A stretch of 7,606 nucleotides of DNA. Origin: a virus. Taxonomy: Duplodnaviria; Heunggongvirae; Uroviricota; Caudoviricetes. The stretch lies in IMG/VR virus record IMGVR_UViG_2706794681_000003; one strand, given 5' to 3'. Positions 190 through 7,606 of the stretch are shown one piece after another. Below the pieces are notes generated by a model that ran no database searches, was not told the DNA's origin, and saw only the letters and a program-made list of their open reading frames with translations. Positions within the stretch are counted from its first letter, which is position 1; each line of letters begins with the position of its first letter. A program made the translations under genes and the position numbers.

Positions 190-3100
190 TCAACGAATAC
201 TGATGCCGGAAGCCGCTTTTTTGGTCACAATCACCGTACAGTCGGTGATATTGCCTGCCCCCTGATTGCCTTTCTGGAAAATCTTAAACTCCAGAGTGAC
301 GCTACCACCACCACTAGGCATATCAATAACTGCACTGTAACTACCGGGAATGGCACCTTTAGTTTCTCTGGATGCGATTAATACGCCGTTTTTGCGAACT
401 TCAAAACCATAACCCGTGTATCGCGTGCCTCCTGGGTTATTTCCGCTCCCCGGATCGTCATACGCTATACCGTTAAAAATAATGGGCGGAATAATAATCT
501 GGCGGTCAAAGTTATGATCATCGCTTATGGTGACTGTAACCGTCCCGTTTGGTGTTTCCGTGTTACCCCACGTACCAGCCTGTTTCGGAAATGATTTGGA
601 TACAGCTTTAACGAAGTCACCTCTGACCTGAGTCGCCTCCAGCATGCCCTTAATCGTACAGTTTTCATTTACCGTGACATTGTTGAGCGTCCCGGCGTTC
701 GCATTCACACTGCCACTGATATCCGCATTTTTAGCGGTCAGCTTTCCGTCCGGAGTCAGGGAAAATGCCGATGGATTTCCACCGCTGGTAATGGTGGGGG
801 CCGTCAGGCGTTTCAGGAACACGTCGTTCATGAATATCTGATCGCCCTGACCAACAAACATCGGTTTTGTGTTGCCATTCGCAGGATTAACCATCGCAAT
901 CCTGTCCGCCGCCAGCAGCACCTGACTCTGCATGCCGTCAGGGGTGTTCTCAATACCGGCACCAATACCCGCGATATAAAGGCGTCCGTCCTGCATCTGC
1001 TGCAGCTTCACAGCCCACATGCTGTTCAGGTTATTATTTGTATCAACCTGAACCTTCTGTATCTGCTGAATTGCCGCACTCTGGTCTTCCAGTTTCTTAT
1101 TGACGGTCTGCGTGATTTCATTGCTGACATCCGTAATGGACGTCCTGATTTCAGCCAGGTCAGGCGCAAGCTGACCGTTATCAATCTGCGTCCACAGCTC
1201 CTGAGCCAGATGGGTTTTCCCTATCTCGCCTTTGAAAAAATCCAGATAACCGGATGCATCATCACTCGGCTGACCAACAGCCTCCACGAATGCCGATTTG
1301 CCAACGGTGTTCACACTGCGGATATAAAAGTAATAATCATGGCCCGGTTTGATATTGATACTGGCGGCTATCCAGTACAGCGCCGTGCCAAGATAGCGTG
1401 CTGTGGTTTCAACCTGCCTGATATCCGCAATCCGCTTTTCCGAGAACCAGAACTCAAACTGTACCGTCGGATCATAAACCGCAAGATGCGGCGTGGCGGT
1501 TATCTGAAAATAGCCCGGCGTCAGCTCAATCCGCGACAGCGCTGCCGGTGCGGCAATCCGGAACGATACCGACGCCGGATCGCCCTGCTGCCCCCACGCA
1601 TTTACTGCCCGGACTGTCAGCCTGTAGTTCCCCAGCGCCAGTTGTGTGAAGCGGTAAGTGGTTTCCGTCGTCCGGGCCGTGCTGACCNNNNNNNNNNNNN
1701 NNNNNNNNNNNNNNNNNNNNNTCAGGTGCTGCACCGCTGGCGGCGTGACACCATTCACCGTGCCGCTCTGGTCGCCGTCAAAGTGCGCCCCGTTATCCAC
1801 GATGGCTTCTTTTTCCGGCACATGCTGCACGGCGGTGATGGCATACGTGCCGTCGTCGTTCTCACGGATACTCACGCAGCGGAACAGGCGCTGGCGCAGC
1901 GTCGGCAGCTTCAGCCCCCATACGCTGTATTCAGCAACACCGTCAGGAACACGGCTCACTTTTACCTTCACGCCGTCGGTGACGGACTGGACCTCCACGC
2001 TGACCGGATTACCCTCACCGTCAACCAGGCTTATCAGCGTGGTGCCGGAGGATGGCAGCGTGATTTCACGGTCGAGCGTCAGCGTCCGGGTCTGGCTGTT
2101 CACCGCCAGCACGCGCCCGCCGGTGCGGATACCGGCATAGTCATCATCGCAGATTTCAATGACATCGCCCGGTACATGACGAAGCCCTTCAGCACCCACG
2201 CTGAAATCCACGGTCTGCGTCTCCAGCAGTTCCGTTTTAATCAGCCACAGCCCGGCGCGGTGTGCCTGCCCCCGGCTGGTACAGCCAAAGGCATCCATCT
2301 TCGTGACGTTACGACCGTAACGGACAATGGCCTGCGTATCCTCCACAAGCTCTGTCGCCGTCTCCCAGCCGTTATCCGGGTCAATCCAGTTCACCTCAAC
2401 GGCATTATGGCGGTCTTTCAGGGCGCTGAAACTGTAGCGGAACGGCGCGCCATCATCCGGCATCACCACATTACTGCGGTTATAGGCCCACACCTTATCC
2501 GACTGTCGGTCCTGCACGAACGTCAGCGTCTGCCCGTTCCATACCGGCATACAGCGCATCGCCGAGCAGAAATCACTGAGCACATCCCACGCCTTGCGCT
2601 GTGTGGTCAGCCAGGCATTACAGGTGATGCGCGGCTCCGTGCTGCCAAAGCCGTCCGGCACCGACTGGTCACAGTACTGGCCGATGACATACAGCGCCCA
2701 TTTATCCACATCTGCCGCACCAAGACGTTTCCCCATGCCATAGCGCGGATGGGTCAGCATATCCCACAGACACCAGGCCATGTTGTTGCTGTATGCCGGT
2801 TTTAACGTTCCGTCCCAGATACCGCTGTATTGCCGCGTCTGCGGATTATAGTTCGACGGCACCTGCAGAATGCGCCCGCGAAGATGATAATTACGGCTCA
2901 CCTGCTGGCTGCCGAACTGTTCCGAGTCCACCTGCACACCGACCAGTGCCGTGTTCGGGTAGCACTGTTTCACATCGATGATTTCGGTGTATGACGACCA
3001 GAGCGTTTTGTTCTGCAGCTGGTCTGTGGTGCTGTCCGGCGTCATTCTGCGCATCCGGATATTAAACGGGCGCGGCGGCAGGTTATCCACCACCACTGAG

Positions 3101-3594
3101 GCCAGATACTGCGAGGTGGTTTTACCCTTAATGGTGATGTCTTTTTCCGTCACCCAGCCACCGTTACGCTGTATCTGAACCAGCAGGCGAACTTCAGACG
3201 GATTCCTGTCTCCCTTTGAGGTGGTTTCCACCAGTGCCTGTACACCGAAGGTAAAACGCAGTCGGTCAATGTTTGCCGACGTGATGGTCCGGGTGATCGG
3301 CGTGTCATATTTCACTTCCGTACCCAGCACCGTCTCGGAGCCGGAGGATTCAAACCCCTCCGGCGGTGACTGCTCCTGCTCACCTGCCCGGAACACCACC
3401 GTGACGCCGGAGATGTTGGTATTCCCCTCACTGTCCAGCACCGGCGTACTGTTCAGCAGCACGCTTTTTAATCCATCCACCGGACCTTCAACCGGCCCTT
3501 CGCTGATGGCATCGATCACACTCAGCAGCTGCGTGGACTTCAGGTTGTCCTTCGCTTCGCGCGGGGTATGCCCCTTACTGCTGCCTTTACCCAT
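190..3594 (-). CDS. J: Central tail fibre / host specificity protein J (tail tip), 1134 aa
   Basis: Full ORF, ATG at 3594 with GGAG about 8 nt upstream. The N-terminal and central portion ([24 protein letters not shown]...) is near-identical to lambda gpJ as I recall it. The C-terminal ~360 aa are divergent and lower in GC. Contains a 34-nt N block (1688..1721) that keeps the frame. Confidence 0.95.
1688..1721. other. Masked/unresolved sequence (34 N) inside J
   Basis: Run of n characters; the J reading frame is preserved across it (12 X codons). Confidence 0.99.
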
Positions 3595-3654
3595 TCGTCA
3601 TGCTCCATAAACGATAAAACCGCCCGGAGGCGATTTCACATAAAACATTTTGCA

Positions 3655-4227
3655 TCAGCGACCAATCACCACAACCTGACCACCGTCCCCTTCGTCTGCC
3701 GTGCTGATCTCCTGAGATACCACACGTGACCCCACGCGCATTTCACCATACAGAACAGGCATAACATTGCCCTGGGCAACCATGTTATCCAGTGAGGAGA
3801 AATAGGTGTTCTGCTTACCGTTATCCGTTGTCTGTGTGCGGGGAGTTCTGGCTTTCGGTGCCAGCATCTGAGCCACACCGCCGAGCACCATACTGGCACC
3901 GAGAGAAAACAGAATGCCGGTCATACCACCGGCACCAATGGCAGCCCCCCATGCTGCAAGGGTGGCTCCGGCGGTAAAGAATGATCCGGCAATGGCGGCT
4001 GCTCCCAGGACAATCTGGAATACACCACCTGACTTGGCCCCGGCGACTCTGGGAACAATATGAATCACAGCGCCGTCAGGCAGAGCCTCATGTAACTGTG
4101 CCGTTAATCCGGACGTGCTAACATCCTGCCCGGCAATACGCACCTGATACCAGCCGTCGCTCAGCTTCTGACGAAACGCAGGGAGCTGTGTGGCCATCGC
4201 CCGGATGGCTTCAGCCCCTGTTTTCAC
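3655..4227 (-). CDS. I: Tail tip assembly protein I (start uncertain; may extend to 4251)
   Basis: ORF KTGAEAIRAMATQLPAFRQKLSDGWYQVRIAG... ending ...EGDGGQVVVIGR matches lambda gpI as recalled. The track start at 4227 is a GTG. The frame is open upstream only to an in-frame TGA at 4267..4269. The codon at 4251..4249 is 'atn' on the minus strand, which would be ATG if the masked base is C on the plus strand. There is a 60-nt spacer before J. Confidence 0.85.
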   Translation of the reverse strand: MKTGAEAIRAMATQLPAFRQKLSDGWYQVRIAGQDVSTSGLTAQLHEALPDGAVIHIVPRVAGAKSGGVFQIVLGAAAIAGSFFTAGATLAAWGAAIGAGGMTGILFSLGASMVLGGVAQMLAPKARTPRTQTTDNGKQNTYFSSLDNMVAQGNVMPVLYGEMRVGSRVVSQEISTADEGDGGQVVVIGR

Positions 4228-4882
4228 ACGAAGATCGATGCGGCGGCCNATACCTCTCTCGTTTGCTCAGTTGTTCAGGAATATGGTGCAGCAGCTCGCC
4301 GTCACCACAGTAAATGGCGGCATGATTCGGCACCGATGAACCAAAACAGCACAGCAGCACATCGCCCGGCTGCGCCGCTGACAACGGCACCTGATACAGC
4401 CCTGTGGCCTCCAGATTATCCAGATAGAGATTCTGACCGTGACGCCACCAGTCATCCTCACGATAAAAGTCCGGCATCTCAATCCCCGCCAGATGGTAAG
4501 CGTCCCGGAACAGCGTGTAACAGTCCGTCACCCCGTGCTCAAAGCGCCGCCCGGTAAGATGTGGCACACAGCGGAACTTGTGAATCGCCCCCCGGCAGAC
4601 CAGCCACCACGGCAAATCACTCTGCACCTGCAGCCGCCGGTCGGCCTCACTCAGCCAGGGCAGACCACCGGGGTGGCTGTGGACCAGTGCCACAATCTCA
4701 CCCTGCATCTCTGCCTGCAGCCAGTCTTCCGGCGACATACGGAAATACGCCTCCGGCTCACCGGAGATATTCACGCAGGGGAAATATCTTTCCCCCTCCG
4801 GCGTTCTTACCACGAAGCCGCACGACTCCGCTGGAGCACATCGCCGGGCGTGCGCCAGAATCGCTGATTCTGTCTCTGTCAT
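4211..4882 (-). CDS. K: Tail tip assembly protein K (JAMM/MPN + NlpC/P60 two-domain protein)
   Basis: ORF MTETESAILAHARRCAPAESCGFVV... with a JAMM motif H-S-H-x7-S-x2-D (residues 68-81, nt 4640..4681) and a downstream Cys (residue 121, nt 4520..4522) followed by His residues, as in NlpC/P60 enzymes. ATG is 5 nt after the L stop. The 3' end overlaps the I start region out of frame. A single masked base (4249) lies in the last 13 codons, so the exact C-terminus is uncertain. Confidence 0.85.
   Translation of the reverse strand: MTETESAILAHARRCAPAESCGFVVRTPEGERYFPCVNISGEPEAYFRMSPEDWLQAEMQGEIVALVHSHPGGLPWLSEADRRLQVQSDLPWWLVCRGAIHKFRCVPHLTGRRFEHGVTDCYTLFRDAYHLAGIEMPDFYREDDWWRHGQNLYLDNLEATGLYQVPLSAAQPGDVLLCCFGSSVPNHAAIYCGDGELLHHIPEQLSKRERYXPPHRSSCENRG
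4249..4249. other. Single masked base (n) in the K/I overlap
   Basis: Single n character; it affects one K codon and a possible I start codon. Confidence 0.99.
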
Positions 4883-4887
4883 GGGAT

Positions 4888-5586
4888 TTACTGCGAAAGT
4901 TTGTTAATGGAAAGGAAGCCGCCAAAGTTGCCGACGTTATTGCGAAACTTACAGCCACTCAGGCATTTGCTGCATTTATCCTTCGTGATGTCGGACGTTG
5001 GCTGGTCATATTCATCCGCGACCGCCGGACCGTGATAACCGCACTCATCGCCGCGATAGGTCCAGGTGCAGGTGTTGGCCAGCATGATACGTCCCGGAAA
5101 AACAGCGCCATCTGTTTCCGTCGGCGTGGACAGCACAAAGGAGGCACTGACCGCGCTCAGTTCGCTGCACTGCTCGACGCGCCAGCGGCTGATCACCTCC
5201 TGCTCCGGATCGGCATCACTGTTTCCGTTGACGAAATTCACCGCATCCAGAAAACGGGCGTAAACCTTACGCCTGACCACCGTTCCGCCGACCAGACTCT
5301 GTAGATCTTCCGCCATCCCGGTGACCATACCGTACAGGTTAGAAACCGTCAGCGTGGGGCGCGTACTGGTGCCTTTGCCATTCAGTTCAAAACCACTCCC
5401 CTGAATGGGATACGGCTGATACTGTCGCCCCTGCCAGGTGACCGGCTCACCTTTTTCGTTCTGCTCATTACAGAAAAAATAACGTTCTCCACCGACCTCT
5501 GTCAGATCGATTTCCCAGAGCACCACGCTGGCCGACTGCTCCGCACGGGTGCATTCATTCAGTGTTTCCTGTTGGATATCCTGCAT
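4888..5586 (-). CDS. L: Tail tip protein L, 232 aa
   Basis: Full ORF MQDIQQETLNECTRAEQSASVVLWEIDL... with C-terminal cysteines at residues 173, 182, 205, 208 and 212. Its start overlaps the M stop (TGATG). Same length as lambda gpL as recalled. Confidence 0.95.
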   Translation of the reverse strand: MQDIQQETLNECTRAEQSASVVLWEIDLTEVGGERYFFCNEQNEKGEPVTWQGRQYQPYPIQGSGFELNGKGTSTRPTLTVSNLYGMVTGMAEDLQSLVGGTVVRRKVYARFLDAVNFVNGNSDADPEQEVISRWRVEQCSELSAVSASFVLSTPTETDGAVFPGRIMLANTCTWTYRGDECGYHGPAVADEYDQPTSDITKDKCSKCLSGCKFRNNVGNFGGFLSINKLSQ

Positions 5587-5915
5587 CAGTTCACCACCTG
5601 TTCAAACTCTGCGCTGAACTCAACACGCAGCATACTGACCCGCGACGACCATTTTGCGCAGGTCACCTTTATCTGCCGCCACTCATAAGGCGGCGTCCAC
5701 AGAAAGGCTTTCCAGCCCCCGTGCTCTTCCAGAAACGACTCCAGTACCATGGCCTCCTCACGGGGGACAGAAAGCGTCACGCTGTACGTTTTCAGGTTGG
5801 CATTCAGCCCGGCAGGCGCTCGCTGGGAATAGCCATCACCAAAGCGCACCTTTCTTACAGAAGGGGCCGAAGCCACATCCATACCGGGTTTCACTTTCCA
5901 GCGGAAGGTTTTCAT
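5586..5915 (-). CDS. M: Tail tip protein M, 109 aa
   Basis: Full ORF MKTFRWKVKPGMDVASAPSVRKVRFGDGYSQRAPAGL... Its ATG overlaps the H stop (ATGA at 5915..5912). Same length as lambda gpM as recalled. Confidence 0.95.
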   Translation of the reverse strand: MKTFRWKVKPGMDVASAPSVRKVRFGDGYSQRAPAGLNANLKTYSVTLSVPREEAMVLESFLEEHGGWKAFLWTPPYEWRQIKVTCAKWSSRVSMLRVEFSAEFEQVVN

Positions 5916-7606
5916 CGTCCACCTCCGGAGAACAGGCCACCATCACGCATCTGTGTCTGAATTTCATCACGGGCACCCTTGCGGGCCATGTCATACACGG
6001 CCTTCATCATCTGTGGACCTGGCAGACCATTCGTACCGTCGTTCTGAATNNNNNNNNNNNNNNNNNNNNNNNNNNNNNNNNNNNNNNNNNNNNNNNNNNN
6101 NNNNNNNNNNNNNNNNNNNNNNNNNNNNNNNNNNNNNNNNNNNNNNNNNNNNNNNNNNNNNNNNNNNNNNNNNNNNNNNNNNNNNNNNNNNNNNNNNNNN
6201 NNNNNNNNNNNNNNNNNNNNNNNNNNNNNNNNNNNNNNNNNNNNNNNNNNNNNNNNNNNNNNNNNNNNNNNNNNNNNNNNNNNNNNNNNNNNNNNNNNNG
6301 CCGCCACCAACAGCCCCGCCAATGGCGCTGCCGATACTCCCGACAATCCCCACCATTGCCTGCTTAAGCAGAATTTCTGTCATCATGGACAGCACGGAAC
6401 GGGTGAAGCTGCGCCAGTTCTGTTCACTGCCGGTCAGCATCGCCGCCATATTCTGTGCAATACCATCAAAGGTCTGCGTGGCAGCACTTTTAACCTGCGA
6501 CATACTGTCCGTGGCGCTCTCTTCCCACTCACTCCAGCCGGACTTCAGGCCTGCCATCCAGCTCCCGCGAAGCTGGTCTTCAGCCGCCCAGGTCTTTTTC
6601 TGCTCTGACATGACGTTATTCAGCGCCAGAGGATTATCGCCATACTGTTCCTTCAGGCGCTGTTCCGTGGCTTCCCGCGCTGCCTGCCGGTCAGTCAGCC
6701 CCCGGTTTTTCGCATCAATGGCTGCCCGTTTTGCCCGTTGCTGCTGTGCGAATTTATCCGCCTGCTGCGCCAGCGCATTCAGGTGCTCCTGATACGTAAC
6801 CTTGTCACCAAGTGCAGCCAGCTGGCGTTTGTACTCCAGCGTCTCGTCTTTATGCGCCAGCAGGGATTTCTCCTGTGCGGACAGCTGGCGACGTTGTGCC
6901 GCCTCCTCCAGTACCGCGAACTGACTTTCTGCCTTCCACAAATCCCGGCGCTGCTGGCTGATTTTCTCATTCGCTCCGGCATGCTTCTCCAGCGTCCGGA
7001 GTTCTGCCTGAAGCGTCAGCAGGGCCGCATGAGCACTGTCTTCCTGACGATCGCCCGCATACACCTTCACGCCGGACTGTTTCGGCTTTTTCAGCGTCGC
7101 TTCATAATCCTTTTTCGCCGCCGCCATCAGCGTGTTGTAATCTGCCTGCAGGATTTTTCCGTCTTTCAGTGCCTTGTTCAGTTCTTCCTGACGGGCGGTA
7201 TATTTCTCCAGCGGCGTCTGCAGCCGTTCGTAAGCCTTCTGCGCCTCTTCGGTATATTTCAGCCGTGACGCTTCGGTATCGCTCTGCTGCTGCGCATTTT
7301 TGTCCTGTTGACGCTGTTGATCTACCCTCTTTTGGGCTGCATCCCGCTCCAGGCGTTTTTTTTCACGATCATCCCAGTAACGCGCCCGTGCTTCATCGTT
7401 AACGAAATAATCATCCTTGCGCAGATTCCAGATGTCGTCTGCTTTCTTAAACGCAGCCTCTGCCTTAATCAGCATCTCCTGCGCGGTATCAGGACGACCA
7501 ATATCCAGCACCGCATCCCACATGGATTTGAATGCACGTGCAGTCCTGTCTGCCCAGGTCTCCAGCGTGCCCATGTTCTCTTTCAGGCGGCGGGTCTGGT
7601 CATCAA
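5912..7606 (-). CDS. H: Tail tape measure protein H, 3' portion (5' end beyond window; interrupted by masked block)
   Basis: The minus-strand frame is open to the window end (…DDQTRRLKENMGTLETWADRTARAFKSMWDAVLDIGRPDTAQEMLIKAEAA…). It contains a long charged, Q/K/E/R-rich predicted coiled-coil region, then the hydrophobic Gly-rich MVGIVGSIGSAIGGAVGGG, then the N block, then IQNDGTNGLPGPQMMKAVYDMARKGARDEIQTQMRDGGLFSGGGR and a stop overlapping the M start. The two flanks of the N block are in different frames (ORFs 5991..7574 and 5912..6346). Confidence 0.9.
6050..6299. other. Masked/unresolved sequence (250 N) inside H
   Basis: Run of n characters. The H frame upstream and downstream of the block would need a span of 250±1 mod 3 to join, so the block length is probably not the true length. 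Confidence 0.99.

Follow-up and report, generated by a model that had tools for sequence, protein, structure and literature searches.

The window, that is, the whole stretch of DNA analysed here (7,606 bases), is the entire WGS record CWTW01000182.1 of the draft assembly GCA_001252435.1. The record is a scaffold of four pieces of 1307, 1800, 2527 and 1687 bases, and it contains three runs of N, at 1688..1721 (34 N), 4249 (1 N) and 6050..6299 (250 N). The Ns of all three runs were already present in the record deposited at NCBI. The original prediction had been made around the lone N at 4249, which was indeed found at this position, and had missed the two longer runs. The minus strand of the window carries a lambda-like tail module with the genes H, M, L, K, I and J and the start of lom, as recognised by nucleotide identity and Pfam searches. 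The genes were assigned on the basis of a nucleotide identity of 95-97% to phage 434, to ev099 and to numerous further annotated lambda-like phages. The Pfam results agreed with these assignments, with Prok-JAB and NLPC_P60 in K (residues 4-98 and from residue 111 on, respectively) and Lambda_tail_I in I. The genes were located as follows:

right end of the window, minus strand, 3' part of H (tape measure)
5586 to 5915, minus strand, M
4888 to 5586, minus strand, L
from 4882, minus strand, K
ending at 3655, minus strand, I
190 to 3594, minus strand, J
first bases only, minus strand, lom

Translation of the deposited sequence around the N reproduced the features that had made the start of I appear ambiguous. 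An ATG at 4323..4321, a TGA at 4269..4267, a codon 'atn' at 4251..4249 and a GTG at 4227..4225 were all present, and translation of the minus strand from 4323 gave MPPFTVVTASCCTIFLNN*ANERGXGRRIDLRV. The open reading frame in the K frame extended from 4882 to 4211 (223 aa), with the end ...SKRERYXPPHRSSCENRG*, and thus terminated at 4211 as had been described. The list of open reading frames contained a short I of 190 aa with a GTG start (3655..4227). The length of about 223 aa that had been given for lambda gpI agreed with the annotation of phage 434 and with the restored I described below. The shortened appearance of I had been attributed either to a truly shorter N-terminus, to an error or indel in the sequence close to the masked base, or to unconventional decoding of the K/I overlap. 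Only the second of these alternatives was borne out by the analysis, in the form of about 86 missing bases.

In phage 434 (OL657226.1) K is located at 14132..14875 and I at 14773..15444, so that I starts within the 3' end of K in another frame. The K/I junction of the window (4150..4400) was aligned to that of phage 434, an alignment to the lambda junction having been proposed. An indel was found at the N and the remainder was fully collinear: 85 bases of phage 434 had no counterpart, exactly at the N. Reading the T that precedes the N as belonging to a synonymous TAT variant of a Tyr codon raises the count to 86. The flanks were 86 bases apart in every relative compared (87 where the alignment stopped one base short), and BLAST comparisons with ev099 and phage 434 likewise showed sequence missing at the N. 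The closest relatives found, the IMG/VR contigs L048, L123 and L036 (99.2-99.9% identity), have 86 bases between the flanks, and the 86-base stretch is also present in eight further IMG/VR contigs. The N therefore lies exactly where the relatives are contiguous, with flanks that are collinear with them, a point that the original prediction had also missed. As judged from these sequences, the missing 86 bases would comprise, for I, the ribosome-binding region, the start codon ATG and codons 1-26; in K they would correspond to 28 complete internal codons and parts of the two adjoining codons.

The two other runs of N in the record also differed in length from the sequence that is truly missing. 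They lie within J and H:

1688 to 1721, no strand, scaffold gap inside J, 34 N in place of 127 bases in relatives
6050 to 6299, no strand, scaffold gap inside H, 250 N in place of 279 bases in relatives

The gap in J is 93 bases (31 codons) short, and the frame is kept; J accordingly has 1134 aa, compared with 1165 aa in ev099. The gap in H is 29 bases short. As this shortfall is not a multiple of three, H is split into two frames, with open reading frames at 5991..7574 and 5912..6346 and an apparent premature stop at 5991. The lengths of 127 and 279 bases were found in ev099 (by BLAST), in L048, L123 and L036, and in eight more IMG/VR contigs. Runs of 1, 34 and 250 N thus stand where 86, 127 and 279 bases are missing, so the numbers of N are placeholders or estimates and not true lengths. 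Length-preserving masking by the data provider was rejected as a source of the Ns, since the lengths of the runs differ from those of the sequence replaced and the record at NCBI already contains the Ns.

To restore K and I, the 86 bases of L048 were put in place of the N; the donor is a 99% identical relative and not the same strain. The restored K had 247 aa and ended with ...RERYTDKWQRRTHSLWRYRAWHASAFTGICNDLAAASIFV. It was equal in length to K of phage 434 and identical to it at 237 of 247 positions (96%); its C-terminal end reads ...GICNDLAAASIFV. The restored I had 223 aa and started with MAATHTLPLALPGMARICLYGDLQRFGRRIDLRV..., with 218 of 223 residues identical to I of phage 434, which is of equal length. 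On the restored sequence the ATG of I lies at offset 641 from the start of K, and upstream of the gap the codons of the true I frame start at positions 4250+3k and not 4251+3k. Around the N the features are as follows:

4250 to 4882, minus strand, gene K, tail tip assembly protein (JAB/MPN and NlpC/P60), codons 1-211, ending ...SKRERY
4249 to 4249, no strand, single N, very probably a join of sub-contigs standing for about 86 unassembled bases
4224 to 4247, minus strand, true 3' end of K, the last seven codons (AAASIFV) and the stop codon TGA at 4226..4224, translation AAASIFV*
3655 to 4248, minus strand, gene I, tail tip assembly protein I, codons 27-223 and the stop codon, beginning GRRIDLRVKTG..., with the start in the gap
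4211 to 4248, minus strand, spurious K tail (X)PPHRSSCENRG*, a wrong-frame reading across the join that is neither the K nor the I frame there
4267 to 4323, minus strand, chance 18-codon open reading frame MPPFTVVTASCCTIFLNN* inside K, in a frame unrelated to I after restoration

Since 86 leaves a remainder of 2 when divided by three, the frame shifts when the join is read across. This shift produces the false C-terminus of K with its stop at 4211, an I reading frame without a start, and a TGA that seems to lie in frame upstream of I. The features at 4323 (ATG), 4269 (TGA) and 4251 ('atn') are in the third frame; they arise by chance and have no biological meaning. The original prediction had taken 4211 as the end of K; this stop proved to be an artefact, and translation of the gap-filled K placed the true stop at the TGA at 4226..4224. 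Its suggestion that 'atn' may be an ATG found no support: were the N real in an 85-base deletion, the reference would call for a T at this position of the minus strand, and the codon would be ATT. Homologues that start I at the equivalent of 4251 were considered in the same context. The annotation of phage 434, the restored sequence and the left-flank matches described below placed the start of the homologues elsewhere, 26 codons upstream and within the missing stretch.

The effect of the gap was also visible in the conserved domains. The score of Lambda_tail_I (PF06805) increased from 74.1 bits for the fragment in the window to 95.1 bits for the restored I (gathering cutoff, 23.8), and the coverage increased from positions 18-83 of 83 in the deposited fragment to 2-83 after the fill. 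The deposited fragment of I has neither a start codon nor a complete N-terminal domain, and an I with an ATG and about 223 aa was obtained only after the fill with L048. In K, where JAB (PF14464) was present, the NlpC/P60 profile (PF00877; 105 positions) was covered at 1-88 by the deposited sequence and at 1-105 after the fill; the gap explains the shortfall in the deposited K. I has an N-terminal ubiquitin-like beta-grasp domain. Because of the gap, the deposited sequence lacks the start of this domain and, in K, the end of NlpC/P60. Processing of I was predicted by Iyer et al. (2006; PMC1779556).

The flanks of the N were then searched for in larger collections. The 57-base left flank of the N, which ends in GGTAT, had exact matches in at least 120 viral contigs of IMG/VR and in 4 genome contigs of the GTDB species representatives. 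Among the 125 left-flank matches listed, 124 continued with ACCGACAAATGG..., which holds the start codon of I, and one ended at the end of its contig. All 124 informative matches among those listed ran into the normal ...ACAAATGGCAGCG..., and in 118 of the 125 listed the right-flank motif followed exactly 86 bases downstream. The junction of the window was seen in none of the left-flank matches listed. The junction pattern, with the N as a wildcard, was absent from IMG/VR and from the GTDB species representatives, a result that bears on junctions with a determined base. A 45-base query centred on the junction was found in 0 of 5,426 complete E. coli genomes and in 0 of 50,697 phage records, whereas a control query, also of 45 bases but carrying the normal continuation, was found at 8,566 places in 4,207 complete E. 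coli genomes. In the collections searched, no independent genome thus had the same junction with a determined base.

The right flank as it occurs in the window had no exact copy among viral contigs or metagenome contigs. The best match among the complete E. coli genomes was only 97.9% identical to the window, so that none of these closed genomes was an identical one from which to read the gap. One contig that carries the 57 bases of the E. coli lambdoid K without a mismatch (at 1513..1569), L125 (JAEWTL010000010.1, 19.9 kb), is labelled 'MAG: Bacillota bacterium' and is probably a mis-binned enterobacterial prophage contig.

Taken together, the N at 4249 is very probably a placeholder at the join of two short contigs in a short-read draft, with about 86 real bases left unassembled. 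What looks like an odd start of gene I is not a real feature but an artefact of the assembly. The real genome almost certainly has a K of 247 aa and an I of 223 aa in the ordinary lambda arrangement with conventional translation, and the start of I almost certainly lies within the 3' end of K, in a frame other than that of K and with an overlap of 103-104 bases. Neither unusual decoding nor a shortened I is present. As to the origin of the gap, the short-read assembler may have broken the conserved tail region, and the presence of several similar lambdoid prophages in one genome would be the probable cause of the break; similar copies of the tail region were found at a median of 2 and at up to 14 places per complete E. 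coli genome. The scaffolder would then have joined the pieces with estimated gap sizes and a minimum of one N. Where they detect no overlap between the pieces, scaffolders of the SSPACE type put in a single 'n'. That gap sizes are hard to estimate from paired reads is stated in the GapFiller paper (PMC3446322); its remarks on the error of gap sizes are general and include no explicit statement on single-N joins.

The deposited sequence, read literally, would describe a real deletion of 85 bases in a decaying prophage, with the N as an ambiguous base call at the junction. If this were true, K would lose the end of NlpC/P60 and I its start and the beginning of the ubiquitin-like domain, both would be inactivated, and the element would be a tail-defective cryptic prophage. 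Degenerate tail modules are common in prophages. Degenerate K variants in integrated prophages are mentioned by Iyer et al. (2006; PMC1779556). Such a deletion is nevertheless very unlikely here, since it needs the coincidence that an N falls exactly at the junction in a 7.6-kb record in which two other N-runs also replace longer sequence. Furthermore, the junction did not occur in any searched complete E. coli genome or phage record, against the 8,566 normal places, and all 124 informative left-flank matches among those listed were intact. The alignment to phage 434 revealed no evident microhomology at the junction, and the flanks were otherwise 99% intact.

A truly shorter I, starting at 4251 ('atn' read as ATG) or at the GTG at 4227, or a K/I overlap decoded by frameshifting or readthrough, is even less probable and can almost be disregarded. 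The GTG-started reading frame of 190 aa does exist, and both the automated annotation of the source contig and the record of phage ev099 use this start. However, positions 1-17 of the conserved Lambda_tail_I domain are missing from the fragment, and ev099, like all other relatives, has the upstream ATG and the 26 codons in conserved form. The GTG call in ev099 is therefore an annotation choice only. With regard to recoding, nothing is left to explain once the gap is recognised, and a programmed frameshift or readthrough is unnecessary. An in-frame fusion of K and I, of a kind known from some prophages (PMC1779556), was also considered. It was rejected since the K frame past the N reads PPHRSSCENRG* and not the I frame.

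The public records of the intact phages ev099 and 434 differ in the annotated starts of K and I. In ev099 (L002, LR597635.1, 3123..4366) the annotated I (573 nt, 190 aa) begins at the internal GTG and the annotated K (675 nt) at a downstream start, and for phage 434 (L003, OL657226.1, 3054..4366) an I of 223 aa and a K of 247 aa are annotated. The short I call of ev099 is the same as the automated call on CWTW01000182.1. The gene calls of the latter record (L136; 2725..3396 and 3380..3952) are artefactual products that are already in the protein collection. The artefactual K in this collection has 223 aa, contains the X and the false tail and has no Pfam hit recorded; the I has 190 aa.

Single Ns in the same tail module were also observed in other IMG/VR contigs that derive from draft isolate genomes, namely L041 (at 8833, 9992, 11485 and 13607), L032 (at 3113) and L084 (at 898). 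Their flanks come from different parts of the tail module; to the left of the L041 N at 9992, for example, lies the N-terminal region of I, and to the right of it the middle of K. The BLAST pieces on the two sides of the N were out of order in L041 and L084. These single Ns between mismatched flanks indicate that single-N joins are common in such data. The three contigs look like chimeric scaffolds across different prophage copies.

The anomaly at the start of I has no biological significance. A lone N in a draft record can conceal tens of bases, and open reading frames across it are therefore unreliable. In this record it has already led to artefactual calls, the 223-aa K with a false C-terminus and the 190-aa I with a GTG start. 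In scans, every N, even a single one, should be treated as a possible join of contigs.

Compared with known systems, the locus corresponds closely to the K/I junction of phage 434. The flanks align with it base for base at about 95-97% identity, and after the 86 bases have been filled in, gene lengths, overlap and stop positions are identical. The sole difference is the 86 bases missing at the N, which are an assembly gap and not biological. In its arbitrary runs of 1, 34 and 250 N joining short contigs, the record resembles the short-read scaffold gaps of the SSPACE/GapFiller type.
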